Source of the DNA: a virus
Virus record (IMG/VR): IMGVR_UViG_3300011008_000009
Location: 32,001-96,000 of that record
Strand: one strand, 5' to 3'
DNA length: 64,000 nt
The notes under the pieces are model-generated. The model did no database searches. It was not told where the DNA came from and saw only the letters and a list, made by a program, of their open reading frames with translations. Shown one piece after another: positions 11,548-42,942 of this stretch (position 1 is its first letter; each line of letters starts with the position of its first letter). The position numbers and the translations under genes are program-made.

Positions 11548-13482
11548 ACTCACATCTTCGCACTGGTGTAGATCGAACTGAGTAATAATATCTCCACTTC
11601 TTGTTCTCATAAGTGCAGAATACTCACTAAACGGCTCTTCTACCAATATTACTCCACCTGCATGAGAGCCTACTCCATTAACTAATCCTTCAATTCGCTG
11701 AGCAACTTCCCATACTTTAGGATAATCTTCTGTCATAAGTTTAACAAAAGTTCTGTCGGGTTCTATACCATTTTCTTCATCACCATAAAAGGTCTGACTA
11801 AGAGTTCTGGCAATACCACGTTCAGCTTTTATAAAAGAAGCCAAGTAACTAGCTTCATCTATATCAATTCCTAATCCTCTGCAAGCTGTAAGTATTGCAC
11901 TCTTACTAGCCTCGGTTTTAAGAGTTTGAACTTTACTAATACGGATATCGTTCCAATCCTCTGTATCGTCAGAACTTTTGCGAGAAGCATTATACTTTTC
12001 GCCTAATGCCTTCAACACCGACTGGCGCTTATTTCCTTGAATATCTATATCAATATCCAATACAGATGCACGCTCAGGGTTCAAAAATCTCCAGGGGAAT
12101 GTTGATGTTCTTTCTCTTAACGGGTTAATCTGCGTGATGTCAAGCAAGTAAAGAAGAACAAAACCTACACCAGAACCTCTTCCCGCGCCAACCAGTGTGT
12201 CACCCTCATTCCAAGCTATTTTTACTAATTCACTCGTCTGAAGAAGATAACCTGACCACCGAGTGTTCATCTTTTCCGAAGATACCCACAACGAATTAAG
12301 ACATACATCAATTGCTTTATACATCTCTTCGTTCGCGCGCTCAATCGGGTCTTTCTCAATTGCTTCAACTATTCTACGAGCAAGGTGTCTATCACTATCG
12401 TACTGCGATGTGGCAAACTGCTTTAATAGCTTTATATCGCTGTACTTATCTATAAGTTCCATATCAGGCTCTCTCGTGTCTGACGGAACATAAGGTATGT
12501 GCAAAGGCTTTGTTAAATCATAGTTTTCACACATATCATATATAATTTTTGTGTTTGCAAGTCCACGACTTACCGCTTCGGCGCCGATATTGCTATCCAT
12601 ATATTCGTGAATTTCTTCTGTACTCATAAGATAAGTACTCGCGTAGAAATCCATTACTTCTCTTTCGCCGTCTTGCGATTTGAGAAATGCTTCGTGTATG
12701 GGGCGCTCTTCCTTTTTAAGATAATGTGAGTCGGTAGTTATTATATAAGGTATATACATCTTAAATGTACCTAAGTGTACTAACACCTTATTAACAAACT
12801 GCTGTTCTTCACTTGTCTTTGACGGTTGAAGCTCTAAAAAGAAATTTTCCTTTCCGAATATGGACTGAATATTTTCTATCCAAGAATACAATTCATTCCA
12901 AAATTCACCGCTCCACTCTGGGTCATTTGTTATTTCTGCTCTATGTTTTAATATCCAGCCGTCTATCCACGAGCCAAGACAAGCACTCGAAGCGATTACG
13001 TGACCAGGGTTCGCACCGATTATTTCTTTTAAGTCACTATAATAAGTTGGAACTCTTGTCATTCGTGCCGTTTCAAAACTATTGTTCCAAGCACGAGTTG
13101 ATAACTGACGCAACTGCTTATTTCCTATTTCATCTTTAGCTAATAGAATAAAGTGATAATACTTATCTTCGCCCTTGATGAAGTTCTCTTTACATAGTCC
13201 GTTACGACATAAATAAATTTCGTTTCCAAGTATCAGCTTAAAATTCTTAATACGTTCTTTTTCTTCACCTGTCGCGGCGTTCTTTAGTCTTTTCTGATAA
13301 TGTTTCTGCGCCATTAGGAAACCGCCAATAGTCTCGTGGTCTGTAATGGCTACTCCGTTATGTCCAAGTTCAATTGCATAATCTATAAGATTATCAACCT
13401 TATTAATACAATCCCTTAGACGATAATTACTGTGCTCGGTATGATTATGACAATCTACGAAAAATTCGGGTGTCAATATCAT
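11548..13482 (-). CDS. dnaE: DNA polymerase III alpha (DnaE-type), exon 1 (PHP domain and palm)
   Basis: PHP motif DCHNHTEHSNY...VAITDHE. Ends ...ITQFDLHQCEDVS, equivalent to [13 protein letters not shown] of E. coli DnaE. Confidence 0.85.
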
Positions 13483-22915: not shown

Positions 22916-25276
22916 TTATTCTATGCTACGAATTAATTTTCGTATCTTGTCGGTTTCGTCTATCTTCATACTATGCGTACCCTTTGTTGTTCGTGAAGAT
23001 AGCTGAATTTCATTGGTAGAAAATTTAATAATATTTCTACTTGAAAGAACCAAAATATCCTTATCACTACCAAGAGGAAGTACCGCCGCCAAATAATCAT
23101 CATCAGATATCTTTTGTACTGCCGATCCCTTAGTATAACGATTACATAACGGATACTCTTCTATATTAGTCTTTTTGATATAGCCCTGCTCGGTTACTGT
23201 TGCGAGATATTGAGCATCTGATGCTATTTTCGCGCCAGAAATTACATAATCATCTTTATTGAGTTTAATACCAATTACGCCTTGAGTTACTCTACCAGTG
23301 GCAGGAATGTCGGTAGTATTTATTGTTATACCCAAACCTTCGTGTGTAGCGATTACATAATTCTCGTCGTTTATGAAACTAATATCTACTATTTCATCAT
23401 TATCTTTGAGTTTGATACCCTGAATGCCAGTAGACCTTTTAGTTTTATATTCTGATATTAAAGTTTTCTTTATCATCCCCAGCTTAGTAAGGAAGAAGAT
23501 GTACTTAAAGCTATCAGTTTTGTTATATGCCATCGCGCCGACTAGATGCTCGTCAATGGGAATATCAAATGTTCCGTATATATTAGTAGTTTCTCCTATT
23601 GTGAGATCTGATAAATTAATATTGTAAACCTTGCCCTTATCAGAAACCAGTAACATAGAGCCTAAGTTTGTATCGTTGATTGTTGCAATTACATACTCAT
23701 CGGCGCCGAGTTTTAGCTTATTACCCTTTCCGCCCCTGCGCTGACTAAGTAGAGTAGTAGACTCACTTGTATAGATGTTACCTTTGTTAGTAACGTGAGC
23801 AATAAGAGTTACTTCTTCGATTATTTCATCTTCATTGTCTGACGAAAGATTTAATACCTGAGTCCTTCTTGCGTCGCCATACTTATCTCTTACAGTGATT
23901 AAATCCTTTTCTATTTCTTTCTTTAAAAGAGTTTCGTTAGAAAGAATTTTTTCAATCTCTGCTATTTGAGAAAGAAGTTTAACTTTCTCCTGCTTATACT
24001 TTTCAACTTCCATATGAGTAAGTCTAGCAAGTTTTATTTCAAGTATCGCAGTAGCTTGTGTTTCAGTAAGTAAAAAATTCTTCTGTAACTCAATATTTGC
24101 TATTGTCGCGCTAGTTGAAGACTTTATAGTATTAACTACTTCGTCAATATGAGCCAAAGCAATTATAATACCTTCAACTATATGGAGTCGCGCCTTGAGC
24201 TTATTGAGTTCAAAATTAAATACGTTAGTATAGACATTAATTTGGTGAGTTAGATAAGCCTGAAGTGCTTCTTTCCAAGTGAATGTTCGAGGATATCTAC
24301 CGTCTTCAAGCATAGTAAAATTAATGCCATAATATGATTGAAGAGAAGTATTCTTGTAAAGATACTTAATTACCTTATCGGGATTACCTCTACGATTAAG
24401 ATAAATCTTTATCAACGGATTTTCACCAGTAAGGTCATTATATCTTTCTATACCACAATCTGGCTCTTCATCGAGTATCTTATCAAGTTCTCCACATATA
24501 GTATTAGTGTAAACGCCATAAGGTATTTCTGTCACTACAAGCGTGCGCTCTTTTTCATCATACGATACAACCGAACGCAATTTACAAGCCTTGCCAGTAC
24601 CATTTTTAAGACTTTCTTTTACTTCACTTTCGTTTAGAAGTAAACCACCAGTCGCAAAATCGGGGCAACAATAAATATCTTCAAAAGGTATATCGGAGTT
24701 CCACAGTAATTTAATCAATGCATTGTTTACATCGGTTAGATTGAACTGAGGTATAGAACTTGCGGCGCCGACACCTATACCCATTGTGCCATTAACGATA
24801 TTGTAGTATCCTTTAGTCGGTAATACGGCAGGATACTGCTTTTCATTACTATAGTTGTCGCGCCATTCTGTAATAGCCTGTTTGTTTATATCTTTAAACA
24901 ATAAGCCCGAAATTTCAGAAAGTTTACTCTCGGTATAACGCGAAGCCGCCCAGTTACCACTTGCTATTAATGTACCACAGTTACCTTTTATGGCAACCAA
25001 AGGATATCTCATAGCAAAATGCTGCCCTGCTCTCATTATTACGCCTTCGCAAGATGCATCACCGTGAATGTAATAATCTGCCATAGCTAAACCGACAGCA
25101 TTCGCAGTTTTCTTAAACTTATTGTCATAAGTAAGTTTATTTTGCAACATTGAATAAAATATTTGTCTAGCCGATGGCTTAATACAATCACGAACATCTA
25201 CGAGCGCACGGCTTTGCAGCACAGCTCCAGCGTATTGACTAAACGACTGTTCTATTATTGTTTTAAGTTCGCTCAT
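22916..25276 (-). CDS. type II DNA topoisomerase, A subunit (GyrA/ParC-like)
   Basis: DCIKPSARQIFYSM...AASRYTESKLS gives the catalytic Tyr context. The C-terminal repeats are consistent with a beta-pinwheel. Confidence 0.85.
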   Translation of the reverse strand: MSELKTIIEQSFSQYAGAVLQSRALVDVRDCIKPSARQIFYSMLQNKLTYDNKFKKTANAVGLAMADYYIHGDASCEGVIMRAGQHFAMRYPLVAIKGNCGTLIASGNWAASRYTESKLSEISGLLFKDINKQAITEWRDNYSNEKQYPAVLPTKGYYNIVNGTMGIGVGAASSIPQFNLTDVNNALIKLLWNSDIPFEDIYCCPDFATGGLLLNESEVKESLKNGTGKACKLRSVVSYDEKERTLVVTEIPYGVYTNTICGELDKILDEEPDCGIERYNDLTGENPLIKIYLNRRGNPDKVIKYLYKNTSLQSYYGINFTMLEDGRYPRTFTWKEALQAYLTHQINVYTNVFNFELNKLKARLHIVEGIIIALAHIDEVVNTIKSSTSATIANIELQKNFLLTETQATAILEIKLARLTHMEVEKYKQEKVKLLSQIAEIEKILSNETLLKKEIEKDLITVRDKYGDARRTQVLNLSSDNEDEIIEEVTLIAHVTNKGNIYTSESTTLLSQRRGGKGNKLKLGADEYVIATINDTNLGSMLLVSDKGKVYNINLSDLTIGETTNIYGTFDIPIDEHLVGAMAYNKTDSFKYIFFLTKLGMIKKTLISEYKTKRSTGIQGIKLKDNDEIVDISFINDENYVIATHEGLGITINTTDIPATGRVTQGVIGIKLNKDDYVISGAKIASDAQYLATVTEQGYIKKTNIEEYPLCNRYTKGSAVQKISDDDYLAAVLPLGSDKDILVLSSRNIIKFSTNEIQLSSRTTKGTHSMKIDETDKIRKLIRSIE

Positions 25277-25877: not shown

Positions 25878-26069
25878 TCATAAGGTTTTTAATACTACTA
25901 CTTGATGTTTACAAATCGGACATTTAATATAATATAAAGTACTCGGAAAAGAGGACATTGAACTTTCAGTGTCTCTCTTCTTTACATCTTCTTTCCAATT
26001 ATAAGAAAGTAAACTTTTACAAATTTTACATTCAACAAACCTGTCAGGTTCTTTAGTTACTATAATCAT
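25878..26069 (-). CDS. small Zn-ribbon protein
   Basis: CKICKS...CPICKH. It starts 2 nt after the topo-II B exon 3 stop. Confidence 0.5.
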   Translation of the reverse strand: MIIVTKEPDRFVECKICKSLLSYNWKEDVKKRDTESSMSSFPSTLYYIKCPICKHQVVVLKTL

Positions 26070-26071
26070 AA

Positions 26072-26253
26072 TTATTCCTTTATTTCTGAAAAGTCAATAT
26101 TATTAAACACGTATTCAGTTCTCGGTTCTACTCTACTGCCCATTAGCTGTTCAAGCATTTCAATACCTTCTTCCGAATACTCAATACGTTCAAGACGCTG
26201 ATATTCAGGACTAAACATTGATTTTCGCGCCGTTGCGGCAGGCAATTCACCTA
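26072..26253 (-). CDS. type II topoisomerase B subunit, exon 3 (not in the ORF track)
   Basis: My translation is (L)GELPAATARKSMFSPEYQRLERIEYSEEGIEMLEQLMGSRVEPRTEYVFNNIDFSEIKE*. This corresponds to the GyrB C-terminal KGLGEM...LMG..VE.R..FI region. Confidence 0.8.
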
Positions 26254-27212
26254 CGTATTACTCAATTATTACTAATTGTACTGACCATTTCTTCACATAT
26301 AGTGCATACCGTTTCCAATTGCGTATCAATAGCAATCGTACTCTCCAACAACGGAGATGGTCGATACAGGTTAATTATTCTTTTCTAAGTTCTTAATCCT
26401 TTTAAGATTAGTAGCTTTAAAGCTGTCGTAACTGGAATATATATTTTTAAAGTCTTCGTAAATGGTTCTTAAACTTTCACCATTTGCATATCTTAATCTA
26501 ATGCTTTCAAACTGTTGGTCACTAATTTTTGCTTTTGGGTTCTTTTCTCCTGGGTTGCTATAACTTTTAGAATTATTTCTATGCCACTCTCTATTTTCTT
26601 GTGTATTTAATTCGGGTAAAATATTTTTCCAAGTTTGCCAAGTATATACTTTTTTAAAACCGGTTTTTTCTATTTTATCCTGATATTCATAATACATTTC
26701 TCTTGTAGAGATAGTCTTGGATGCCCACAATAATCTTATTTCTATAACATCTTTTTCTGTTAATTTGTGCTTAGGATGTTTTTCGCCGTGAGTATCAACT
26801 AAATCTCCACCCGGAGTAGCATTATATCCTTTTTTAAAAGTATTGTAATAATTTATCCAATAAATTTCTTTTTCTTTTAGCTCTTCTGGTTTACATTCTT
26901 CTAAAACTTCCCATTTGAAATTTTCTAAACCATATTTTCTGAACGCTTGATACAATACTTTATCATACTCTTTATTATCACTATCAAAAGCTCTTTCTCT
27001 ATGAGATTTCCAGCGATTTTCAATATTTATAGATAACCCAATATAAGCATTATTATTAATTAAATTTGTAATTTTGTATATACCAGTCATACATTTCCTC
27101 CAAGAATAATTCTTCCCACGAGATTATCCAACTTGGGACTACCCTCGTTAGCAGTCAATGAAGACTACCCCGCCGATAAGCGGAAAAGTATGTAAGGACC
27201 AGACTACCTCTT
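26254..27212 (-). mobile_element. group I intron (topo-II B intron 2) carrying a GIY-YIG homing endonuclease
   Basis: Exon 2 ends AAA GGA U|, after U. The intron ends ...GUAAUACG|, after G. Joining gives RAKG-L-GELP, the KGLGE motif. GUAUCGACCAU and AGAAAUGGUCAG elements flank the 3' core. Confidence 0.75.
26371..27090 (-). CDS. GIY-YIG homing endonuclease
   Basis: MTGIYKITNLINNNAYIGLS...RWKSH...YNATPGG. GGAGG precedes the ATG. Confidence 0.85.
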   Translation of the reverse strand: MTGIYKITNLINNNAYIGLSINIENRWKSHRERAFDSDNKEYDKVLYQAFRKYGLENFKWEVLEECKPEELKEKEIYWINYYNTFKKGYNATPGGDLVDTHGEKHPKHKLTEKDVIEIRLLWASKTISTREMYYEYQDKIEKTGFKKVYTWQTWKNILPELNTQENREWHRNNSKSYSNPGEKNPKAKISDQQFESIRLRYANGESLRTIYEDFKNIYSSYDSFKATNLKRIKNLEKNN

Positions 27213-27411
27213 ATCCTTTTGCTCTCGTTACCTCTCCCTTTACTGTTGAACGAACCTTATTAAACTCCTCATCAGTAAAGTAGTAACTTTCTACTCCTTT
27301 ATTTTCTACTATATAAAGAGGAGATTTAAGCCAATACAGTCTACCTTCTTTTATAAAGTCTGGCGCAAGATACCATAAGTTTGCCATAATTAACAATCCT
27401 ATGTGACTTCC
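27213..27411 (-). CDS. type II topoisomerase B subunit, exon 2
   Basis: GSHIGLLIMANLWYL...LYWLKSPLY corresponds to GyrB DGSHIRTLLLTFFYR...YIAQPPLY. Confidence 0.8.
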
Positions 27412-28446
27412 CACGTTACCCATTATTTCTAATGGCGCTGACTATCTGTTACTCGTTAAAATGAGAATACTCTTTCCAATCACGTACCAATAGTGACTGT
27501 ACTTCCCTTCCGGGGAATAGTCGATACAGGCTTCATTTATTAACCCAAACCTTTTGTTTTTTCTTGTATATTGGCAGGTCTTTATAGGTGCGACCCCACA
27601 ATATTTGTTGTAATGTATTGTAACTGCATCTATCTTTAAAATCATTATAGATACTTCTTGCATCTTCATTAACGTACCGTTCTCGCATTTTTAAGACTTC
27701 TTCACTTGTAAATTTTGCGCTATCTGAATTAGAGCCATCTGTTGCGTGATATTTATAGAAATTTTTATTTTCCTCGGTATAAACTTCCATTTTAATATCT
27801 TTCCAAGTGGTTCCGTCCCAAATGGATGCGAAGCTGCTAAAACTTATTCTGTCTTGAAATTGTTTATATACTTCACGGCGTCGCATATGGTTGCCATAAC
27901 ACTCTCTAATATAAGCCACATCTTCATTAGTGAGTTTCGTTCTTCCATTATTTTCACCACGACTATTTCCGCCGCCTTCATTGCAATTATAACCAAATCC
28001 TTTATAAGTATTATAATATGCAATCCAGTATTTTTCTCGTTCATCTAATTGTTCTAATGAACATTCTTCTATAATTTCAAAATCAAAAGCATCAACGCCA
28101 TATTTCTTAATGGCTATTTCAATCGGTATATCAATTTTGTTTTTATGTTCGGAAAATCTTCTCTCTATATCATTACTTTGACCAATATATGATTTTCCAT
28201 TTTCTTTCTTAGTTATTTTGTATATGCCTATCATTGCGGCACCTCCACAATTATTAGGCTTGGGTCAATTCTGATTCCCACGGGATCTGCATGCCCACGA
28301 GGGGTTTAGCTTCTCTTATCACCATAACCTTTCGGTTTAGTTGCCCGTTAGCCTTCTATAATAATGTAGGGAATATGTAAACCCTCTCTACATTTTTCAG
28401 AAGACCCCGCTGGTTAGCGGTAAAGTATTTACGGACAGAGTTACTT
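27412..28446 (-). mobile_element. group I intron (topo-II B intron 1) carrying a GIY-YIG homing endonuclease
   Basis: Exon 1 ends GAU UCG GAU|, after U. The intron ends ...GGUAACGUG|, after G. Joining gives TDADSD-GSHI, the Toprim DxDxDGxHI motif. GUAUCGACUAUUCC and ACAGAUAGUCAG elements are present. Confidence 0.8.
27533..28234 (-). CDS. GIY-YIG homing endonuclease
   Basis: MIGIYKITKKENGKSYIGQSNDIERRFSEH...YNCNEGG. GGAGGTG precedes the ATG. Confidence 0.85.
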   Translation of the reverse strand: MIGIYKITKKENGKSYIGQSNDIERRFSEHKNKIDIPIEIAIKKYGVDAFDFEIIEECSLEQLDEREKYWIAYYNTYKGFGYNCNEGGGNSRGENNGRTKLTNEDVAYIRECYGNHMRRREVYKQFQDRISFSSFASIWDGTTWKDIKMEVYTEENKNFYKYHATDGSNSDSAKFTSEEVLKMRERYVNEDARSIYNDFKDRCSYNTLQQILWGRTYKDLPIYKKKQKVWVNK

Positions 28447-29937
28447 ATCCGAATCTGCGTCAGTTGCTATGGCAATTTTACCATAATGAAGTTTTTTGCT
28501 ATCATACTTTCCAGGCAGTATGTTCATGGCGCTTAACAGTAACTTTATCTCTTCGTTCTTAAATATTTTTTCTTCATCATTGGACAACGAATTAATCATC
28601 TTACCACGAATTGCCATAAGACCATACTTAGTTATATCTCTTGCCCGCGACAGTCCGCCTAACGCCGAGTCTCCCTCACAGATAAGTAAGGTACTGTCCT
28701 GTCCAAGAAACTCTGCGTCTTTCAGCTTATCGCTAGCAAACACTTTTTTCTTCTGATTTTTCTCGATATCCTTTGTAGCATCAAGCACAGCCTGTCTTGC
28801 CTTTTCAGCCGCCTTTTCAGCTTTCTGAATCTTATTCATCATTTCGATGATACTATTAAATTCACCACTATGTTTAAGCGCAAATTCATCAAGTCCAGAC
28901 TTAAAAGCCGTACTAGCTAAAGTTCTAAGATTAGGATTATTTATTTTAGACTTGGTCTGATTAGCAAAAGAGGGGTTAACTACTTTGCAGTTTATCGCAT
29001 AAACCAGACCCTTACGAATGATTTCGGGATCGAACTCCTTCTTGGACAAACGCTTCATAGAGGTTGTAAAAGTAGTTTTCGCGCCTGTAATGGGAGAGCC
29101 ACCCTCGCTGCAAAAAAGTCCGTTGACAAATACATAGCTGGCACCCGGACCATCTGTCCACATAAAAGCTACTTCTACTTCATCAGTATCATCTTTTGCT
29201 GTTGTAATGATTGGCGCAGACATCAATGGTTTTTTGACATTGTCCTTAATAAAATCGCCTATACCATTTTCGGAATAAAACTCTACTGTTTTTCCAGTAT
29301 TAACCAAACCAACTTTAAAATGTACACCTTTATTAAGATAAGAAATATTTCTTATTTCATTACATATTCTATCATAAGAAAAGCCGTCAGTCATTAATTT
29401 AAATACTTCGGGGTCTGGAATAAACTCTACCTTTGTGCCAGTATGGGCGCTTGTATTGGGTATTTCTTCATAATTTACGAGTATTCCTTTTTCAAAGGTA
29501 GCAGTAGCCTGCTTCTTTTCTCGATAGGAAGTAACGACAAAATTTTTAGAAGACATACATACCGCGGTTCCGCCTATACCATTCAATCCAGAAGAATTTT
29601 TGTATGCATTTTTGTCAAATTTTCCTCCAGTATGACTTTCGGTATAAATAGACACCAGAATATTTCTTCCGTCTTTAATACCAAAAGGTACTCCTCGTCC
29701 GTCGTCTATAATTGTAATTTTATTGTTTTGTTCATCAACAGCTATGGTTATTAAATTACCATATCCTGCCAATGCTTCATCTGTAGAATTGTTGACTATT
29801 TCTTTAAATGCTTGATAAATACCATCGGTATCATCAGAACCGAGATACATCTGTATCCTTGAACGCATAGCTTCACGCGTTTCTAAGTGTCTTATGCTAT
29901 CTATACCATAATTATCCATTCGCATTCTCCTTTTCAC
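28447..29937 (-). CDS. type II topoisomerase B subunit, exon 1 (GHKL ATPase, transducer, start of Toprim)
   Basis: EIVNNSTDEA, IDDGRGVP, GLNGIGGTA, then CEGDSALGG...IAIATDADSD. Confidence 0.85.
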
Positions 29938-30003: not shown

Positions 30004-30345
30004 TTAAAGTATATTCAGATACTTAAGTAAGTTTCTATACTCTCTGTCTAAAAGCAGCGAATCATCTTCGGTATCATCTTTCTTGAAAGTTCCTTTTACG
30101 CTATATTTTATAATAGGAATTTCACCGTACTTTTCAAAATACTTTTCGGAAAGATTTGCTGCCTTATCTATGAGTTCCTGTATCTCTTTCTGCTTACTTT
30201 CTTTCTCTGCCTTCAGCGCTGCCTTTCTCTTGTCTTCCGCCGCCTTTTCAGCATTGGCTATACAATCGCGTTCGCACTGGTTTCTTTCAGCTACGGTGTT
30301 GTATCTCTTACCACATATTCCACAAGTATAAATCTGTTCTCTCAT
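30004..30345 (-). CDS. small Zn-finger / coiled-coil protein
   Basis: CGICGKRY...ERNQCERDC followed by a K/E-rich helix. Confidence 0.55.
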   Translation of the reverse strand: MREQIYTCGICGKRYNTVAERNQCERDCIANAEKAAEDKRKAALKAEKESKQKEIQELIDKAANLSEKYFEKYGEIPIIKYSVKGTFKKDDTEDDSLLLDREYRNLLKYLNIL

Positions 30346-31517
30346 TTTTTAATACCTCTCTTTAATAATATTATTGTAGTGAAACCTATTGTATATAATC
30401 CAAGTAATACCCAAAGTACCGGCATATATGCTCCCGTAACACCAAATACAATAGAACTAATATTGTTACCTACTAATCCTGCTATTCCCCAAGCAGTTAA
30501 TGACAGTCCGTGTATTGCACTAAGTCTGTTCATTCCATAGATATCAGATAACAATGTTGGCATATTACTAAAGCCAGCGCCATAAGTGCTAGAAATAATG
30601 CATAGACCAATAATAGTAACTATAATATTCTGTGTTAATAGCATAAGTACCATTGTGGCTACGGATATTAGAAAAATTACTAAGTAGATGTTCACTCTAC
30701 TATTAAGTTTATCAGAAATTGCGGAAAAAGTCAAACGTCCGAGTCCATTGCAAATTCCCATAATAGCAACTGCTGTTGCCGCGAGTCCAGGACCACAATT
30801 AATTGATACTAGTAAAGGAGATGCAATAGATATTAACGCTAGACCACACGCAATATTTAAAAAGAACATTAACCAAATTTTTCTAAATTTGCTGTCCTTA
30901 AACATAGTTAAAACTTTAAAATCATCTTTTGTAGTTTGTTCTACATAATTAGGCGGTCGCTTAATTAGTATAGAAGCTAATATTAAAGGTATTACTGATA
31001 TGGCGGCAAAACCTAAAAATGTAACAGTTAGATTAGTTGTTTCAAGTAAAAAGGTAAGTATAGGAGTAGCTATTGTACTTGCAAAACCAAAGCCCATAAT
31101 TGCTATTCCAGTTGCCACACCTTTGTGTTCAGTAAACCATAGCATTAGGTTTTTAATAGGTGTTAAATATCCTATGCCAAGTCCACATCCCATAAGAACA
31201 CCATATCCTAAGTATATAAGCCATATGGATTGCAACCAAGAGCCGAGCGCCGTAACGAGCAGACCGCCGCAGAAGAACAGCACACATAATCGAGAGCTTA
31301 GCTTAATATTGTGTTCAACTAATTTACCCAAGAACGCTGCCGACATTCCAAGAAAGAATATAGCTAAACTAAATGCGAACTGTACCCAAGCCACTGACAT
31401 TCCGACAGCCGCCGTTACGGGGTTTACGAGTAAACTCCAGGCATATACCGAGCCTATTGTACAGTGGATACATAAAGCTGGAATGGCGCCATGTATCCAT
31501 TTTCCTAATTTTCCCAT
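30342..31517 (-). CDS. MFS transporter, oxalate/formate antiporter (OFA)-like family
   Basis: About 12 hydrophobic segments. SVYAWSLLVNP and GLGIGYLTP...WFTEHKGVATGIAIMGFGFAS resemble OFA-family signatures. The start at MGKLGKW is preceded by AAGGAG and overlaps the nrdG stop. Confidence 0.75.
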   Translation of the reverse strand: MGKLGKWIHGAIPALCIHCTIGSVYAWSLLVNPVTAAVGMSVAWVQFAFSLAIFFLGMSAAFLGKLVEHNIKLSSRLCVLFFCGGLLVTALGSWLQSIWLIYLGYGVLMGCGLGIGYLTPIKNLMLWFTEHKGVATGIAIMGFGFASTIATPILTFLLETTNLTVTFLGFAAISVIPLILASILIKRPPNYVEQTTKDDFKVLTMFKDSKFRKIWLMFFLNIACGLALISIASPLLVSINCGPGLAATAVAIMGICNGLGRLTFSAISDKLNSRVNIYLVIFLISVATMVLMLLTQNIIVTIIGLCIISSTYGAGFSNMPTLLSDIYGMNRLSAIHGLSLTAWGIAGLVGNNISSIVFGVTGAYMPVLWVLLGLYTIGFTTIILLKRGIKK

Positions 31518-31999
31518 AAAACAACTTCTCCTTTTAATAGTGATTCTTGCACATCTATAATGCATTGATTGCTTGAACCTCTAAATTTTAGTGTAATATC
31601 TCGCTTATCTATCTCAAAAGGTCCGTCAACCAAAACGTCTATATATTGTAGTATTCTTAAATTTTTAGATAGTTGTTCAAAAGTAAAACCAGTATAGCAC
31701 CAAATAGTTTTGTCTTTATACTCATTCTTTATATCCTGTAAAAAAGATAATAATGTTTCATTACTACTATGATATATAGGGTCGCCGCCGGTTAGTGTTA
31801 AACCTTTAATGTAAGGATTTTTTAATAACTGTTTAATATTATTAATTTCAGCTTCTCCAAAAGGCTTTCCTGCATTAAAGTCCCAACTTTCTGGATTATG
31901 ACAACCTTTACAATGGTGGTCACAGCCAGAGAGCCAGAGGGTTACTCTGACTCCTGGACCATTAGCTACATCAAATTCATCTATTGCTAAATAATTCAT
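31505..31999 (-). CDS. nrdG: anaerobic ribonucleotide reductase activating protein (radical SAM)
   Basis: GCDHHCKGCHN is the CxxxCxxC cluster. GLTLTGGDP. It starts 2 nt after the nrdD stop. Confidence 0.85.
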   Translation of the reverse strand: MNYLAIDEFDVANGPGVRVTLWLSGCDHHCKGCHNPESWDFNAGKPFGEAEINNIKQLLKNPYIKGLTLTGGDPIYHSSNETLLSFLQDIKNEYKDKTIWCYTGFTFEQLSKNLRILQYIDVLVDGPFEIDKRDITLKFRGSSNQCIIDVQESLLKGEVVLWEN

Positions 32000-32001
32000 A
32001 C

Positions 32002-32493
32002 TTACCTCTTCCAGTTCGGTAATTCTTTTGAGTGCTTATATCTCATTTCAACTTCTTGCTGTTTACCTTTATTAAAAGCAGTTGTATAATTTCCTGTTAA
32101 ATAACCTGTTACTCGTCTTAATCTGCTAATGTCTGCGCTTCCACACTGTGGACAAACCTCATTAATTTCATCAGTATAACCGCATTGATTACACATATCA
32201 TTAGGAACATTAATAGCAAAATAAGGAACGTCCTTATCCATAGCGTAATTTACTAATGTTTCAAGTGCTTCGAGGTTATTTTTTACTGTACTTTCTAACT
32301 CTACATAAGTTATGCATCCAGCATTTGAATAATTAACGAGCTGTGCTTCTATATCTATTTTCTCAAAAGGATTTAATTTTTTCCATACCGGAACGTGCAT
32401 AGAGTTAGTGAAGAACTCTTTATCAGAAACATTCTTTATAATTCCATACTTTTCTTGGAATTTCTTCATCGCGGTATAGCATAAATTCTCAGC
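32002..32493 (-). CDS. nrdD: class III (anaerobic) ribonucleotide reductase NrdD, exon 3
   Basis: The frame is open upstream of the track ATG and reads AENLCYTAMKKFQEKYG. A Zn-ribbon CNQCGY...CPQCG follows, then the glycyl-radical motif RRVTGYL. Confidence 0.85.
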   Translation of the reverse strand, partial: AENLCYTAMKKFQEKYGIIKNVSDKEFFTNSMHVPVWKKLNPFEKIDIEAQLVNYSNAGCITYVELESTVKNNLEALETLVNYAMDKDVPYFAINVPNDMCNQCGYTDEINEVCPQCGSADISRLRRVTGYLTGNYTTAFNKGKQQEVEMRYKHSKELPNWKR

Positions 32494-33445
32494 CGTTTTT
32501 ACCCTCGGTTTCCCGATATTTGATAGGGGACTAGACTATATTATCATCTTATTATCTTTCTCATATAATAAGAGCCTTATCTTTTGCTTTATCAGCTACT
32601 CTACTCGCTTCTTCACTTTAGATTTTAACTAAAGCTATGCTTTCGATAGTCGTTAGAGAACAAAACCTTTTTCATCATATTCTTTAAGAAATCTATAATA
32701 GTAACCTTTTCTTGGTTTAGTTTTTAGTTTGTGGTTGCATTGGTACAAGATACCAGTTTTTGTCATACCAGTTTCTCTTGTTGCTTCACCAACCGAACCA
32801 TATTTTTTTATAAGATTAAAATTAAGGTCGAATTGACATACTGCTATAGATTGATTATCATCCCAACTCTTAGCATTTACTGCTAGCCCATCTCTATAAG
32901 CGCCTTGAGTGTTTTCTTGGACCGTGCCCCATTTGAGATTTAAATAATTGTTATTAGTTTTATCATTATCTAAATGTAACACTATTGATTGATTGTTAGG
33001 ATTTGGAACATAGGCCTCGGCAACCAATATATGTACTCTTCTTTGTCTTTGTCCAGTTGGATAAGTTATATTGCAATAACAATATCCATTACTTTTATTA
33101 ACAAAAACTGACTTTTTAAACATTTTATTATTGCCGTAATCTTTGTAAATTTGACCGTCGGGAGTAATATAATCTGTATTACTGTCTTTTATTAATCTTA
33201 GTTCTTCGGTTATTAAGTTTTTGTCTATTAGTTGATTTTCCAATTTTCTTTTAGCCATTTTTATCACCTCACTTTAAAGTGAAAGGTAACTTATTATACT
33301 CTAAAGAAAATCTGTGATAAGGTTTTATCCTACGGGATTAGCCTGCCTTACGGTTTAGCCTCTCTTACCATCTTATTACGATTGCCCGTTTAATAAGGTT
33401 ATTTTTTCACATAATCACTTATGCGACACCCAATCTGAGAGTTTT
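32494..33445 (-). mobile_element. group I intron (nrdD intron 2) carrying an HNH homing endonuclease
   Basis: Exon 2 ends ACA CCU|, after U. The intron ends ...GUAAAAACG|, after G. Joining gives YYTP-AENLC, equivalent to E. coli YSTPSENLC. CUAACGACUAUCGAAAGC and GAUAAUAUAGUCUAG elements are present. Confidence 0.8.
32653..33258 (-). CDS. HNH homing endonuclease
   Basis: HILVAEAYV...VLHLDNDKTNNNYLNLKWGTVQEN is the HNH core. The C-terminus has an IENR/HTH-like GSVGEATRETGMTKTGI. The start at MAKRK follows GAGGTGA. Confidence 0.8.
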   Translation of the reverse strand: MAKRKLENQLIDKNLITEELRLIKDSNTDYITPDGQIYKDYGNNKMFKKSVFVNKSNGYCYCNITYPTGQRQRRVHILVAEAYVPNPNNQSIVLHLDNDKTNNNYLNLKWGTVQENTQGAYRDGLAVNAKSWDDNQSIAVCQFDLNFNLIKKYGSVGEATRETGMTKTGILYQCNHKLKTKPRKGYYYRFLKEYDEKGFVL

Positions 33446-33967
33446 AGGTGTATAATATACTCCAAAATTCAGCTTATACTTTTGCTTAAATTCTGCACAT
33501 CTAGTTTTGAATAACTGTTCAATGCGCTTAGCCAGCTCCATTCCTTCGGGTTCGGTATGGTCTTTACCAATTAATATCTGTAAAGTTTCTGCCAATCCTA
33601 ACTGACCAATAGCAAGTGTTCCGTGCTTTAACGCACTACGAATACCCTCTTCGGGTTTGTAGCCAAGCATAAGACCGTTTTCGTACATAAAGGTCGCACT
33701 TTCTTCGTTTTGAGAACAAATCCACTCAAAGCGCTCTATTAATGTATCTTTTGCTTCGCTTATCTTTTTATCAAGTAATTGTAGGAACAGAGAGGAAATG
33801 TCATTGTCATATTCATAATTACACAATTCTTTAGCCATCATAGCAATAGTTGGCATAATAATGGTAACAGGACAAATATTTCCACGTCCGTCTTTAGTTT
33901 GCGGGTTAACGCCTTCTTCCGCATTAATATCGGCGCCATTGTATGTACGACAACCCCTTGTCGTAAT
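33446..33967 (-). CDS. nrdD: class III ribonucleotide reductase NrdD, exon 2
   Basis: ITTRGCRTYNG...DGRGNICPVTIIMP corresponds to E. coli SPMGCRSFL...GRNNLGVISLNLP. Confidence 0.8.
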
Positions 33968-34801
33968 CATTAGACTATGTCATCTTCCAATATTGTAATA
34001 ACCTTTATTGGAAGCCTATCGTTTTGGGGACAATGGACCCCTACTCTACTCACTTCTTCATATTAGTATTTTTCTAATATTATGCTTTCGATAGTCGTTG
34101 AGCTTTTAATATTAATAAGTATTACTTAAAATATCTACGAACACCAATTTTTCCTAAATCTTTATGGTGCCAATCTTTATAAAACCAACCTCTATTAATT
34201 GAAGCCTGAATGGTATTTCTTGACATAGGATAATCTATCAATAAATCTTCTCTACTAGAATATTCCTTGATAAGACTTCCAGTACTATAATCAAACACTT
34301 GATAGTAGGCATCTCCAGAACGGTGAGGTACATGAACGTGACGTAAATCGTTTCTGAAAGCGTGTAAATCATTTTCACTTCTTGTTACCCATTCTAAGTT
34401 ATCAGCCGCATTGTTTAATTTATTACCATCTTTGTGATTTACAACTAATTCTTCTTGGTAGCCATCACAAAAGTGATACGCAACCAAACGATGTATAAAA
34501 AAACGTTTCTTTACCGGAGCATATAATACTACTCGTCTATAACCACAAGTATTTATATCTCCTTTAAGTATTTGTTTGGTTTTATAATTTCGCACATTTC
34601 CTAAATTACTAACTTCATAATAGGTTTCATAATTTTTAATTGGTTTCCAAATTTCTTTCATACGCCCAATTCCTCCTTAAGAATATGGCTTTTATTAATA
34701 TATTTAGCACACGAGTAACGTCTTAGACGCTTCCTCCGTTTAGATAGGTTTATTTATACTACATTACTGTAGCAGACCACAGGTTGGTTTATGGTCGATA
34801 C
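33968..34801 (-). mobile_element. group I intron (nrdD intron 1) carrying an HNH homing endonuclease
   Basis: The RNA contains CUAUCUAAACGGAGG...CGUGUGCUAAAU (T4 td-like P3-P6 region), CUCAACGACUAUCGAAAGC and GAAGAUGACAUAGUCUAAUG| at the 3' end. The proposed join is KTY|ITTRGCR, with U before the 5' splice site and G before the 3' splice site. The 5' junction is less certain, by a few nt. Confidence 0.7.
34122..34661 (-). CDS. HNH homing endonuclease (NUMOD4-like N-terminus)
   Basis: EIWKPIKNYETYYEVSNLGNVRN...HRLVAYHF...VNHKDGNKLNNAADNLEWVTRSEN. AAGGAGG precedes the ATG. Confidence 0.85.
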   Translation of the reverse strand: MKEIWKPIKNYETYYEVSNLGNVRNYKTKQILKGDINTCGYRRVVLYAPVKKRFFIHRLVAYHFCDGYQEELVVNHKDGNKLNNAADNLEWVTRSENDLHAFRNDLRHVHVPHRSGDAYYQVFDYSTGSLIKEYSSREDLLIDYPMSRNTIQASINRGWFYKDWHHKDLGKIGVRRYFK

Positions 34802-37003
34802 ATAGGTTTTCGGATCCTCTCTGTTGTATCCAGCATTAGTGGACCAGTCTACATTAGCATAATTAGGATAAAGTCTTTTCGCAGTTGACCGTAATGCTAA
34901 TTTAAATAAATCATAATTTGGGTCTCCAGGCTTTCTATTAACTCCTATCATACACTGGAAAATTCCACAAGGAAATACAGGTGTTTTATGAAGTTTACCT
35001 ACACCCTTAATAGAACCGTGTAAAAGAGCCTCGGTCACCATTCTACCTTCGGTAAGTGTACAAGTACCATAGTTGATAGAAGTAAAAGGAAGCTGATTTC
35101 CTGCTCTACTTTGAAGAGTATTTAGGTTGTGATACATACTCTCAGCAGCTTGTTCGGTTTCTTTTATGGTGTGTTTAAGAGCGTACTTATACGCCTTATC
35201 ACAGCTATAAACTTTTCTATCATCTATACTAAATTTATCAATAGCTTCATAAGGAGGAAGCTGATATTTTGTAAGTAAATTTTCTTTTTCATCTTCCAAG
35301 TCAACATCTTCTATAAATGCAAGTGCATCTATATAGTGTTTATAAAAACTCTTTCTTACAAAAGGAACCATTGTCCAATCTAAGTGCGAAGCGGATACTC
35401 CACCGAACTGCTGAAGGCTCTGTAATTGGAAGATAACAGCTAAAAGTTGAAAAGCTGTATTAATAGACTGAGGCGGGCGCACGTCTGTCTGTCTAGTATT
35501 AAATCCTTCTTTAAATAGTTTGTCAAAGGGAATTGTAAGGCAATTACCAGTTGGAATACCATTCTCAAGAACAAAAGCATGTTCATCTTCTACATTCAAA
35601 CACCATACATCGTGTAATTCGGTGTCCTCTTGAGTTATATCCTTTACATACCAATTGAATTTATTTGAATGTTGTCCAAAAAATTGATAATTTTTAGTGT
35701 ATCCTCTAACAGTATAGTTGGTTTCTTGCCCAGTCTTATCTTTTATTGAATTTACATACAAACCAGCAACTGGGAAATATTCTTCCACAAAATCACATAA
35801 TTCTTTGCTTGTAAATTGGATGCTATAAATAGGTTTTCCCGTAGTAGCGGAAACGCTATGAGTTCCGTCAGCATCGTACAAACCGTGGATAAAACTAATT
35901 AGACATTCCAATGGTAGATTGGTGAAATCTGGAATGGTTTTGTCATATTTAATACCTGTAATTTCCGGCTCTTGTGAAGAACAATTTAAACCATATCCTA
36001 TTTCTTGGAAACGATATAAATATTTCGCTTTATCCTTACATAATTTTACTTTAGTGAAATTTGATTTATAATATTTCTTTTCTTTTTTAGAATATCTTGT
36101 TTCAATAATTCCGTCCCCCATAATAAAACCATAGCACCAATATTCTTTTCCGAGTAAACTTAAAGATTCAAAATCAAAATCTTCCCAAAACCACGGAGAG
36201 TCTAAAAGTTTATCATTAATAGACAATCCTTCTTGGAAGTCCCCGTCTATATTTATCCACCTGTGGTCTTCTGTTGATTTTATGGTTATTTCTGTCCTAT
36301 TCTTTTTTAAAGTATAAGACAATAATTTTTGTTTTCCATGGTAGTTTACAGTTGCTTTCCTCCAAACTCCACTTGGAGTTAGCACAGTAACGATATCCCC
36401 GTCTTTAAAATTACTAAAAGCCTTAACTCCTTCAGAGGTTATAAATCTTGTAGAGGGGTCGAAACAGTTATGCGAACCAACTGCGTAATCAGTTAAATCG
36501 TGTATGTAAATGATATTGTCTATATGATTACGGCGCGAAGTCTCTGACATATAATCTTCCAATGCTATTTTCTTCATCAGCAGATCAGTTACTTCACCCT
36601 TTCTACCATTAAAAGACTTTTCATCTACGTTAGCGTTTTGGTGTTGAGGGTCTGCCGCCGTTAATTTCTTCTTAACGTCCTTCATTAAAGAAGCATATCT
36701 ATCTCTTGCTAAAGCGTGACGATAGCGATAGGTAATGAAGTTTTTAGCCATTATCTGGTCATACTTCATTAACTCTTGTTCTATAATATCTTGAACATCT
36801 TCTATGAAAACTTGCTCACCATATTTATCTGCTACTATTTGTGTGATTTCTTCTGTCATTTTCCGCAAATCTTTTGAGAAATCTTTTGTTGAGCATTCGG
36901 GATAGGTGTCGAGCGCGGCATTGGTGAGAGCATTGTAAATTTTACTTGGGTTAAAAGATACTTTACTTCCATTTCTTTTGATTGCATATTTTGTTGTACT
37001 CAT
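34802..37003 (-). CDS. nrdD: class III ribonucleotide reductase NrdD, exon 1 (ATP-cone and N-terminal barrel), interrupted in frame by an intein
   Basis: ATP-cone YAIKRNGSKVSFNPSKI. ...YIHDLTDYAVGSHN[intein]CLTIPFDKL. The track ORF tail after ...KTY (34754-34801) is read-through into the intron. Confidence 0.85.
35543..36466 (-). mobile_element. intein (308 aa) with a LAGLIDADG endonuclease domain inside NrdD
   Basis: Starts CFDPSTRFITSEG (block A). STEDHRW is block B. YGFIMGDGI and IHGLYDADGT are the LAGLIDADG motifs. Ends FVLENGIPTGN, followed by extein Cys. Confidence 0.85.
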
Positions 37004-40458: not shown

Positions 40459-42942
40459 ATGGCAGATAAAAATTATTTATATGATAGTGAAGATTATTTA
40501 GAAAGACCTTCACATTACGATAATTTTTTTAATCCTATTATTACACCTTACAAGTTTCAAAACGTAAACGAAGAAAAGTATAATAATAATGTTGACCTTA
40601 TTAATAAGGAATTTCCTAAATCTATTTTACAAGATAGCACGGGACATTGGATAAGAATTATCAACACAGAAGATTATATAGATGAAGAATCTGCCACTAT
40701 TGAAGCAGAAATAATTAAGAAGTATGGAGAATTGGTTCAAAATTACTATGGTTTAGGCAATCGTAATTTATTACAAAATCCAGACGTAGATTATGAAGTA
40801 ATTCGTAGCTATGGATATGAAGTATCTGAAGATTCGATATTATATCCACAGAGCGCCTTGCGTTGGAGTGAAACCTACAATAAATGGTTTGCTATTTGGT
40901 ACACTCCTATAAAAGAAGATGGGTCTATAATTAGCAAAGCCAATGCAAAAAGTTATTTAACTACTTTATTTACTAGTACAGACTTCCTGGTGGCAGATAA
41001 AGAAGGTAATAATATAATTTTAAGAATAGACAAAGAGTTAGGTTTCAGTGCCATAGACGTTATTAGTGTAGATAAAACCTACGAAACTGATAATGTTAAA
41101 AGAGTAAAACAGGAATTATCCAATTGGAGTACTGCACTTACTCAGGCTCAACAGTATTACTGGGATTTGGTGGAAACCTATGGAAATGTAGACGGAAGCA
41201 ATTATCTATTCATTGATGAAGATAAAAATATTTTTAGTAGGACTAACAGAAAGTCCTACTTTACCTTTAAAGTAGAAAATAATAATTATACCGATTTAGG
41301 AATAGCATTAGATGAAGAAATAAGTAGTCTCCAAGATTGGCAACAAAATACCGATTATAAAATTGGAGATTATGTGCTACACAGCGAGACAATAAGCGGG
41401 GTTGAAACGCCCTGTTTGTACTATTGTGTAAAGGATAATAATAGTGGAGAAACTTTTGAAGTAGCTACCATTGTTAAAAGAAAACAATATGGACAAGAAG
41501 TAGATGTCTTGGTGGCTCAATGGAAATTAGTATCTACCGAATATGGAAAAGAATTAAACAAAATCCTAGAAAGATTTCCAAATTTCAATCCAGAAGGATA
41601 TTATAGATTTGTTTTTCCTGCTCTTGAGAGTCGGCGCCCGCGCCAATATTATCCCAACGGTGAATTAAAGCCTGATGCACAGCGTGGTAGCCTATATATA
41701 AATCAAAGTAATAATGAAGAAAATCGGTTCTTTGCCATTACTCCTTGTTATGCTTACGACCCAAACACAGGGAAAGACAACATCGAGTATAAAATTATTG
41801 CGAACGCGGATATTTCGAGTAATTATATCGAAGAAGAAGAAGGATATGTCGGACCTAAAAAATATATAACTTCCGCGCAGAAAATAATAGTTTACTTTGA
41901 GAAACTTGCTTTAGCTAATAATAATATAGTATCAATGAGTTTTGATAGTAAAGTAACCAAGATAACCAAAGATGCTTTTTATAAAAGAGATGACTTGCTA
42001 AAGGTTTCAATACGCCAAGGCGCCCAGTCAATAGGTAACAGAGCTTTTGGCGGCTGCACCAATCTTCAGCAGGCTTTGCTTCCTAGTAGTTTAGTTATTA
42101 TGGGAGACGGTTTATTTGCAGGTTGCCGCCTATTGAAACGAGCCACGGTGCCGCCTAATATTATTTCTTTAAATGCAACTTTTAATGGTTGTGAAAATTT
42201 AGAAAGCGCAGTATTAAGTCCTTTTACAGTTGAAATAGGAGACAGTGCTTTTTCAAACTGCTTGAATTTAAAGAAGGTTTATAACACAAGTAAAGTTTCT
42301 ATATTAGGTAAATCAGCCTTTTTAAATTGCGAAAATTTAAAGAATTTTACAATTAATAAGGAAATAATTAGCATACCCGACAGAGCTTTCAAGAATTGTA
42401 AAAATTGTCATTTTACCCTTGAAGAAAGAGAGGAAGGAGAAGAGTTAGTAAGTTTAGGAATAAGCAGCTTTGAAGGCTGTGAACAGCTAACCAAAACTTT
42501 TGATTTATCCAAAATTCAACTCTTAGGTGACGGCGCCTATAAGAATTGCTTTAATATACAAGAAATGAATTTCAATTTTGGAGACGATTATGTAAGTAAA
42601 CTTATTCCTAAAAATTTTTGTTATGGTTGCTATAATCTGAAAACTATTAATTTAGGAGAAGCAGAAATACTTGACGACGGATGTTTCCAAAATTGTGCTT
42701 CTTTAAGAGAAGTTACTATCCCTACTACAGTTAAACAATTGGGTACTAACGTTTTCTATGATTGTTTTAATTTAAAGACATTAAAAGTTCCCACTGTTTA
42801 TCCTAGTGGTGTTGGCGCCTGGATAGAAAATCCTAATATAGTTTCAGACGCAAATAGAATAAATTGGATAGACCCTACCTTTACAACGGTTACTAATTAC
42901 AATGGGGATGTGATTAAATGGAAGAAAGCAGTAATACATTAA
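40459..42942 (+). CDS. large surface/adsorption protein with C-terminal BspA-type leucine-rich repeats
   Basis: The C-terminal roughly 330 aa are repeats of AFxxCxNLxxhxhPxxhxxIGxxAF. One CBM5/12-like segment: WQQNTDYKIGDYVLH...LYYCV. Confidence 0.7.
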   Translation: MADKNYLYDSEDYLERPSHYDNFFNPIITPYKFQNVNEEKYNNNVDLINKEFPKSILQDSTGHWIRIINTEDYIDEESATIEAEIIKKYGELVQNYYGLGNRNLLQNPDVDYEVIRSYGYEVSEDSILYPQSALRWSETYNKWFAIWYTPIKEDGSIISKANAKSYLTTLFTSTDFLVADKEGNNIILRIDKELGFSAIDVISVDKTYETDNVKRVKQELSNWSTALTQAQQYYWDLVETYGNVDGSNYLFIDEDKNIFSRTNRKSYFTFKVENNNYTDLGIALDEEISSLQDWQQNTDYKIGDYVLHSETISGVETPCLYYCVKDNNSGETFEVATIVKRKQYGQEVDVLVAQWKLVSTEYGKELNKILERFPNFNPEGYYRFVFPALESRRPRQYYPNGELKPDAQRGSLYINQSNNEENRFFAITPCYAYDPNTGKDNIEYKIIANADISSNYIEEEEGYVGPKKYITSAQKIIVYFEKLALANNNIVSMSFDSKVTKITKDAFYKRDDLLKVSIRQGAQSIGNRAFGGCTNLQQALLPSSLVIMGDGLFAGCRLLKRATVPPNIISLNATFNGCENLESAVLSPFTVEIGDSAFSNCLNLKKVYNTSKVSILGKSAFLNCENLKNFTINKEIISIPDRAFKNCKNCHFTLEEREEGEELVSLGISSFEGCEQLTKTFDLSKIQLLGDGAYKNCFNIQEMNFNFGDDYVSKLIPKNFCYGCYNLKTINLGEAEILDDGCFQNCASLREVTIPTTVKQLGTNVFYDCFNLKTLKVPTVYPSGVGAWIENPNIVSDANRINWIDPTFTTVTNYNGDVIKWKKAVIH

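Follow-up and report, generated by a model that had tools for sequence, protein, structure and literature searches.

Two predicted td-like group I introns interrupt catalytic motifs of a phage type IIA topoisomerase B-subunit gene

We analysed a 64,000-nucleotide (nt) stretch of viral DNA (IMG/VR record IMGVR_UViG_3300011008_000009, positions 32,001 to 96,000; hereafter the window, to which coordinates refer) in which the gene for a type IIA DNA topoisomerase B subunit lies in three pieces on the minus strand. Our reading, to which we give a probability of roughly 0.9, is that this gene is transcribed into one pre-mRNA with two td-type group I introns, and that splicing would restore a frame of 617 codons. 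Intron 1 (27412..28446, minus strand, 1035 nt, phase 0) lies in the Toprim DxDxD/G motif, and intron 2 (26254..27212, minus strand, 959 nt, phase 1) lies in KG/LGE. Intron 1 is td-like, with the P7.1 and P7.2 elements, and intron 2 belongs to the same group I family. Each carries a gene for a GIY-YIG endonuclease.

The exons could be placed to the base. Exon 1 (28447..29919, minus strand) encodes the GHKL ATPase, the transducer and the first part of Toprim, with Pfam matches to HATPase_c, DNA_gyraseB and Toprim. The open reading frame (ORF) that contains it (29937..28441) ends ...IAIATDADSD-K-stop; the exon itself ends with GCAGATTCGGAT at T28447, and AAG TAA comes next (GAT/AAGTAA). Exon 2 (27213..27411, minus strand, 199 nt) is collinear with intronless alleles, starts with GGAAGTCAC at 27411, and runs from GSHIGLL to TRAKG and the first base of a Leu codon, ending in GCAAAAGGA plus T (AAAGGA+T), with T27213 as its last base. 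Exon 3 (26072..26253, minus strand, 182 nt) contributes the last two bases of that codon, opening with TA GGT GAA TTG at 26253, and encodes GELPAATARK, LMGSRVEPR and FSEIKE before a TAA stop (26074..26072); the next gene starts with an ATG at 26069, 2 nt further on. Joined in this way, the first junction reads DADSD/GSHIG in frame, and the second reads KG-L-GE. The predicted ligated junctions are GCAGATTCGGAT followed by GGAAGTCACATA and GCAAAAGGAT followed by TAGGTGAATTGC, or, as longer strings, GACGCAGATTCGGAT followed by GGAAGTCACATAGG and GAGAGCAAAAGGAT followed by TAGGTGAATTGCCTG.

Together the exons sum to 1854 nt from the ATG at 29919, which gives 617 codons and a stop, or 623 amino acids (aa) from the GTG at 29937. 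The ATG is probably the translation start, as AAGGAG lies 7 nt upstream of it and all homologues begin with MDNYG. Pfam identifies HATPase_c (the GHKL ATPase), DNA_gyraseB, Toprim and DNA_gyraseB_C in the joined protein, with Toprim crossing junction 1 and DNA_gyraseB_C (residues 550-606) crossing junction 2. Streptococcus pneumoniae ParE (4juo) aligns with residues 2-613 at an expectation value (E) of 3.9e-78 and without a gap at either junction: iaiatdadsdgshigl faces iiimtdadtdgahiqt at the first, and trakglgelpaat faces qrykglgemnadq at the second. T4 gp39-gp60 is a distant relative only (8yo3, E 2.9e-26). In a large protein collection, three uninterrupted 617-aa homologues (P0001-P0003) are 97-98% identical to the joined protein, and others are 84-90% identical. 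The intronless DNA of three relatives (L007, L009 and L008) has the same length of 1854 nt and is collinear to the base at 28447/27411 and 27213/26253. As the bases flanking each boundary differ, the intron boundaries cannot be slid along the sequence.

The ATPase, the transducer, the Toprim acidic cluster and KGLGE are all found in one chain that has an A-subunit partner, as expected of a type IIA topoisomerase B subunit. On these comparisons, the assignment of the three minus-strand exons to one GyrB/ParE-type subunit is confirmed and lies far beyond chance. The original prediction had placed the first interruption inside Toprim DxDxDGSHI and the second where joining restores KGLGE; both placements proved exact and in frame, and both agree with the 4juo alignment and with the intronless alleles. 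Its coordinates for exon 3 (26072-26253), with the LMG..VE.R motif and a stop 2 nt before the next gene, also check out, as does its statement that this exon is invisible to ORF calling, for gene calling left exon 3 uncovered in related contigs (L002 and L003). The alignment to GyrB/ParE-type proteins that it had proposed runs end to end. Its product length of 630 aa should instead be 617 aa (or 623 from the GTG).

Two further ideas about this gene were dropped. A TCR serine codon before intron 1 does not mark intron carriage, since TCR (10) and AGY (14) both occur among uninterrupted IMG/VR alleles; the idea arose because the closest intronless alleles have an AGC serine codon in its place. 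The 565-aa length of one homologue (P0015), which had suggested a third intron, is due to an in-frame TAG; the gene is contiguous apart from that. This TAG (L006, 5548-5556) stands in a related phage topoisomerase B gene where homologues have Lys (GAKAV*ASMFSPEY), and may reflect a nonsense mutation, stop-codon recoding or an error in sequencing.

Next, we turn to the insertions themselves, both of which have the architecture of a group I ribozyme. As the original prediction had stated, each follows a U and ends in a G. A guide 10-13 nt into the intron (GUCCG, 28436..28432, in intron 1; GUCCUU, 27199..27194, in intron 2) pairs with the end of the upstream exon, giving the P1 helices CGGAU/GUCCG and AAGGAU/GUCCUU, in which the last exon base (T28447 or T27213, read as U) forms a wobble pair with a guide G at the 5' splice site. 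The last intron bases are G27412 and G26254, at boundaries fixed by the intronless alleles. A long P3 is formed by AAUACUUU/AGAGUAUU in intron 1 (28429..28422 with 27473..27466) and by CAUACU..UUU/AAA..GGUAUG in intron 2 (27192..27184 with 26315..26305). Its 5' strand is followed by hairpin A (28420..28407; 27184..27169) and hairpin B (28403..28353; 27166..27153). Then come J3/4, which is GCUAA, and P4 (the two together at 28352..28344 and 27152..27144), which pairs as ACGGG/CCCGU in intron 1 and as ACGAGG/UCUCGU in intron 2. P5 is present (27139..27126 in intron 2), and the second strand of P4 runs into P6 (28284..28275; 27122..27113). The closing pairs of P6 (GG/CC) bracket the whole endonuclease ORF in both introns, with the returning strand and J6/7 at 27530..27523 and 26370..26363.

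The 3' domains follow the same plan. P7 is GACUAU/AUAGUC in intron 1 (27522..27517 with 27445..27440) and GACCAU/AUGGUC in intron 2 (26362..26357 with 26288..26283), and it forms a pseudoknot with P3. P7.1 (27516..27504; 26356..26343), P7.2 (27499..27477; 26338..26316), P8 (27465..27452; 26304..26294) and P9 (27435..27420; 26278..26263) complete the domain. Both introns therefore contain the P3-P8 and P4-P6 domains of the core, the P3/P7 pseudoknot and the R/S-type sequences (..CGACUAU.. and ..AGAUAGUC..). P4, P7, P3, P7.1 and P7.2 differ between the two by compensatory changes.

To place these introns in a wider context, we collected their family from IMG/VR with a sequence pattern spanning J6/7, P7, P7.1 and P7.2. 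This yielded at least 117 stretches; the family statistics given here refer to the matches listed, which comprise 105 unique 3' domains, and both halves could be placed for 90 sequences. In the window, the core motif occurs at these two places only, against 0 expected. The pairings are supported by extensive covariation. The middle pair of P4 is A-U in 50 sequences and G-C in 40, and the pair that closes P6 across the ORF is G-C in 74, C-G in 14 and A-U in 2; both are always compensatory. Both strands of P7 change together in all five cases of its C-G/U-A variant, the P3 strands covary extensively across the family, and changes in the P1 guide are matched in the exon (CAGAU/GUCUG, AAGGGU/GCCCUU, AGGCU/GGCCU and AGCGGU/GCCGCU). 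P7.1 has at least four nested pairs in 105 of 105 members, which represent 71 distinct sequences, and P7.2 is paired at 97.5%, compared with 60.6% for shuffled partners. A tertiary contact is also indicated: in hairpin A, the loop A[U/C]CA varies in concert with UAUUG[A/G]UAC in L7.2, with a U-A pair in 62 and a C-G pair in 25 of the 87 sequences in which the hairpin was located, which points to a kissing interaction. Most members carry long insertions, with at least 500 nt (ORF-bearing) inside P6 in 68 of the 90, and 19 are ORF-less introns of about 240-330 nt.

Formal counts were made on two alignments, one of nine ORF-less members, none from the window (A4), and one of 31 diverse 3' halves (A5). 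Two MAFFT alignments were excluded, one in which the long hairpin B had misplaced J3/4 of intron 1 (A2) and one in which a member (L076) was shifted in P3 (A3). In A4, 90.3% of cells were paired, compared with a mean of 74.6% after shuffling and 35-45% with slid partners; in A5 the corresponding values were 92.1%, 60.2% and 34-45%. None of 500 shuffles reached the observed fraction in either alignment. Double-change pairs numbered 37 in A4, a count that none of 500 shuffles equalled, and 20 of 21 in A5, where P7.1 was 100% paired (4 of 4 double-change pairs) and P7.2 98.6% paired (6 of 7).

These non-coding structures bear on whether the gene has instead been fragmented for good by endonuclease insertions, its three pieces being translated separately and then assembled. 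Endonuclease-split genes do exist in phages (PMC2988022; PMC3045599), and exon 2 is preceded, 12 nt upstream, by an in-frame ATG at 27423. However, this ATG sits in the P9 stem and has no Shine-Dalgarno sequence, and exon 3 begins mid-codon with neither an ATG nor a GTG start. One break lies within the metal-binding DxDxD cluster and the other within KGLGE, and the roughly 330 and 240 nt of non-coding sequence that flank the endonuclease genes show the ribozyme covariation of the whole family. We regard permanent fragmentation as very unlikely. An intein or a group II intron was rejected as well: a stop codon comes after each exon, each endonuclease ORF has a frame of its own, and no reverse transcriptase is present.

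We also built a covariance model (R1) of the 3' half, with 124 positions, from 31 IMG/VR sequences, none of which came from the window. R1 matches intron 2 at 26371..26253 (114.3 bits, E 9.3e-25) and intron 1 at 27531..27411 (102.6 bits, E 4.7e-22), and both matches end at the predicted 3' splice site. It also detects the 3' core of T4 td (L127, 1501-1615; 41.1 bits, E 7.1e-8), the textbook self-splicing IA2 intron.

Several observations weigh against our reading. The Rfam scan of the intron intervals that the original prediction had suggested was negative: no group I model reached its gathering score anywhere in the window, nor was there a match at E<=10 on 25900-28700. Even an ORF-less family member (L105, 2618-2838) matches RF00028 at 28 bits (E 1.8e-5, full model length), below the threshold of 50. 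In structure, P8 contains one mismatch in intron 1 and has only 3 bp in intron 2, no P10 pairing was established in the introns, and the 5' strand of P3 directly follows the guide, so that P2 does not lie between P1 and P3 as in subgroup IA2. Finally, it is from structure and T4 td biology that we infer splicing.

The Rfam result appears to reflect a limit of the model and is not evidence against the introns, as the proven T4 td intron (L127, 1375-1605) itself scores 40.3 bits with RF00028, under the gathering score of 50. In the window, the miss can be attributed to the 700-nt ORF in P6 and to the weakness of the model for the td-like subgroup. On the ORF-less member, RF00028 puts P4, P5, P6, P7, P8 and P9 where covariation does. 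Rfam does detect other group I introns in two IMG/VR phage contigs that hold members of this family (L105, 2145-2369, 98.7 bits; L012, 6369-6595, 85.3 bits), the latter td-like.

The structural points raise the possibility that the introns are real but that one or both splice poorly, because they need a protein cofactor or have been decaying since invasion, with little or no full-length subunit in this genome as the result. Splicing is predicted, P8 is weak in both window introns, and hairpin B and P5 of intron 1 are greatly expanded relative to ORF-less relatives. On the other hand, the core pairings and the tertiary loop-loop pair are all intact in introns 1 and 2, and their R1 scores of 103-114 bits lie near the top of the family range (106-123 bits for relatives). 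The exons contain no stops or frameshifts and encode a protein with 97-98% identity to uninterrupted alleles, and the A-subunit gene is intact. This makes poor splicing unlikely, and two functional introns in one gene remain the reading that we prefer.

The similarities to T4 td extend over the whole 3' core, whose layout (P7, P7.1, AGUA, P7.2, GAAA, P3', P8, J8/7 and P7') is shared. As in td with I-TevI, a GIY-YIG gene lies in the P6 loop, the N-terminal domain of its product matches I-TevI (1MK0), and the intron occupies a conserved site of a DNA-metabolism gene in a phage of the virulent type. The host gene differs, being thymidylate synthase in T4 and the topoisomerase B subunit here. In td, P2 lies between P1 and P3, and the 5' strand of P3 abuts J3/4. 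Here, two covarying hairpins stand between the 5' strand of P3 and GCUAA-P4 (28429..28353 with 27499..27466 in intron 1; 27192..27153 with 26338..26305 in intron 2), and unlike td the family conserves 9 nt in L7.2 (UAUUGRUAC), which pair with a hairpin loop. The sequence and structure comparisons support placing both insertions among T4 td-like group I introns; because of the different hairpin placement, we do not call them typical IA2.

The endonuclease genes lie in the P6 loops. Endonuclease 1 (27533..28234, minus strand, 233 aa, in intron 1) matches Pfam PF01541 (E 8.7e-13), the PHROG 7168 homing endonuclease (E 4.6e-29) and the I-TevI catalytic domain 1MK0 (E 6.8e-5); endonuclease 2 (26371..27090, minus strand, 239 aa, in intron 2) matches the same three at E 2.4e-9, 3.6e-36 and 5.5e-8, respectively. 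A ribosome-binding site, GGAGG, is found 7 nt upstream of the ATG in both genes (28246..28242 and 27101..27097). The 1MK0 alignments place GIY, YIG/YVG, the Arg of ERR/ENR, the Glu of EREKYW/EKEIYW and GYN in register in both proteins. The original prediction that each intron carries a different GIY-YIG endonuclease is borne out by these matches: the two are distinct but related, with 38% identity over 217 residues, C-terminal halves included. The two proteins share conserved C-terminal halves (about residues 100-230), which PHROG 7168 covers, yet these halves have no detectable match to the DNA-binding domain of I-TevI, nor did any other solved DNA-binding domain match them.

Related phages carry every combination of the two introns at these sites. 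Neither intron is present in the three intronless relatives (L007, L008 and L009), intron 1 only in L001 (truncated product P0013, 492 aa), intron 2 only in L002-L005, which represent four assemblies and have it at 95-99% identity (product P0011, 556 aa, with TRAKG at its end), and both in the window. Between the window and L002, intron 2 shows identities of 98.4% in the 5' core, 95.3% in the endonuclease gene and 99.1% in the 3' core, whereas the exons of the two topoisomerase genes are 75-88% identical. This indicates that the transfer of intron 2 between lineages postdates the divergence of the host genes. Near intron 1, L001 is mosaic, its exon 1 identity to the window falling from 94% to 70% in the 250 nt before the intron, a pattern that fits co-conversion. 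Presence or absence at the same site and an intron that is better conserved than its flanks are both characteristic of homing introns, and the relatives with neither, one or both form a natural series for the study of homing and co-conversion.

The same relatives speak to a third possibility, that the arrangement is an assembly artefact (a chimeric contig) or a dead pseudogene that only seems to restore the motifs. Metagenome assemblies can be chimeric, but the same introns were found at the same base in independent contigs from different samples (L001 for intron 1; L002-L005, in four assemblies, for intron 2), 36 of the 105 listed unique IMG/VR members lie at these two sites, and the exons are under clear purifying selection. 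We consider an artefact or pseudogene extremely improbable.

Among the family copies listed, the two window sites are the most frequent homes, with 26 of the 105 at KG/LGE and 10 at DxDxD/G-HI. As these sites are so often occupied, the window appears to combine two common homing sites and does not represent a singular event. Two of the 105 copies lie 6 nt upstream of the DxDxD/G-HI site in topoisomerase B genes, a position at which L020, L021 and L048 have family introns. Other positions are also used: one contig (L083, DADVDG/SHI) has a family intron 3 nt downstream of the intron 1 site, and five have them at the EGDSA Toprim motif of topoisomerase B genes (L019, TEG/DSASG; L063, L085, L074 and L080). 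When an ORF-less member was compared by blastn with GenBank phages, the only matches were short, confined to the core and located in Lactococcus and Enterococcus phages, and the matched positions carry no intron annotation there.

Our reading suggests the following sequence of events. The guide near the start of each intron would pair with the end of the upstream exon to form P1, leaving a U-G wobble at the splice site, and the P3-P8 and P4-P6 domains with the P3/P7 pseudoknot would form the ribozyme core. An external guanosine would attack after the U, and the freed exon end would then attack after the terminal G of the intron. Ligation of exons 1-3 would yield the 617-codon frame with DxDxDG-HI (Toprim) and KGLGE whole. 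The endonucleases would be translated from their own start sites in the P6 loops and, by analogy with I-TevI and td biology, each may cleave, close to the insertion site, alleles of co-infecting relatives that lack the intron, and repair would copy the intron into them (homing). Location in a catalytic motif would give the endonuclease a target that is hard for the host gene to mutate.

It is a classical finding that conserved sites of phage DNA-metabolism genes harbour group I introns with GIY-YIG genes. As in other phage genes with multiple introns, such as Staphylococcus phage Twort orf142 and the polymerase genes of phage K and Bacillus phage SPO1, the window shows several group I introns per essential gene or genome, homing endonucleases and broken ORFs. 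The type IIA topoisomerase B subunit thereby joins the phage genes that are invaded at catalytic motifs. Inteins in GyrB and GyrA are likewise mobile, carry homing endonucleases and target type II topoisomerase catalytic motifs, but they are in frame and removed from the protein, whereas here a stop comes within 1-2 codons of the end of each exon and the endonucleases have their own ribosome-binding site and frame.

A phage type II topoisomerase ATPase/Toprim subunit interrupted by an endonuclease-associated mobile element is also found in T4 (PMC2988022; bioRxiv 10.1101/2022.08.31.505936). There, the large subunit is split into genes 39 and 60, with mobA and a 50-nt bypass; NrdA of Aeromonas phage Aeh1 is likewise split, by mobE. 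In T4 there are two polypeptides and translational bypass, whereas in the window ribozyme introns should restore one polypeptide. Intron-rich jumbo phages of the gut (Jug phages) have on average about 18 introns per genome, with splicing confirmed by metatranscriptomes for about half; these introns are about 206 nt long and mostly ORF-less (PMC12880540). The Jug genomes measure 360-400 kb, compared with about 139 kb for metagenomic contigs related to the window phage, and the same paper lists DNA topoisomerase IV as a conserved single-copy core gene, its examples of split genes being terL, nrdD and DNA polymerase (PMC12880540).

A partial literature search, which is no proof of novelty, found no paper on a group I intron in a phage gyrB or topoisomerase gene, and a 2014 review of bacterial group I introns mentions neither topoisomerase nor gyrase. 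The two introns are of a familiar kind of phage element and leave the understanding of such elements unchanged. It is possible, though doubtful, that they form, with a related intron in dnaE of the window, a distinct, undescribed branch of td-like introns that Rfam misses, with P2-type hairpins nested in P3 and a kissing L7.2, abundant in uncultured phages and with about a third of the listed copies at topoisomerase B motifs.

The practical value of these observations lies in annotation. Called B-subunit products are 492 aa long in the window and 492 or 556 aa in relatives, with exon 3 missed. As gene callers truncate the product in this way, an essential replication enzyme looks broken or mis-sized in this phage group. 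Given the score of T4 td, Rfam scans at gathering threshold can miss ORF-bearing td-like phage introns, and as Rfam also misses the introns described here, intron-aware annotation of phage metagenomes needs models of subgroups. R1 brought to light a third family member in the window, one overlooked by the sequence pattern.

The window, with a G+C content of 34.7%, is part of a large phage genome. No close relative was found among GenBank phages: megablast of the locus gave zero matches, and the relatives found by tblastn did not exceed 34% identity. A replication and nucleotide-metabolism module is present, with DnaE, RecJ-like, DnaB-like, PhoH, Sak4-like, NrdD/NrdG and GyrA/ParC-like genes. 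The GyrA/ParC-like gene encodes the partner A subunit (22916..25276, minus strand, 786 aa; Pfam DNA_topoisoIV, E 2.3e-103, and DNA_gyraseA_C) and is intact, downstream of the B-subunit gene and in the same orientation. Inside this module, a major-facilitator transporter gene (31565..30342) lies between nrdG and the topoisomerase gene. Some relatives have a formate/nitrite transporter in the same place (L006, 2446-3120; L008, 1862-2482), and we take this position as a variable cargo slot for that reason. Elsewhere, an 827-aa BspA-type leucine-rich-repeat protein is encoded on the plus strand (40459..42942; Pfam LRR_5, E 1.1e-59), which may act in adhesion or receptor binding.

The same annotation problem arises for dnaE and nrdD in the window, which are split as well. 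In dnaE (13482..6915, minus strand), exon 1 (13482..11548) is followed by an intron (11547..10320) with a GIY-YIG ORF (11357..10443). This is the third family member, matched by R1 at 10437..10319 (85.8 bits, E 3.6e-18), with P1 GAGU/GCUC and an in-frame join that reads DVS/LIKWDLL. A second interruption of dnaE contains a LAGLIDADG ORF (9453..8464) between 10277..9651 and 8375..6915. The nrdD gene (37003..32002, minus strand) is in three pieces (37003..34754, 33970..33419 and 32469..32002), separated by HNH ORFs at 34661..34122 (with NUMOD4) and 33267..32653, with a weak R1 match at 32660..32550 (11.7 bits, E 0.49). Its first piece has a LAGLIDADG_3 match at aa 367-430, which is possibly an intein.

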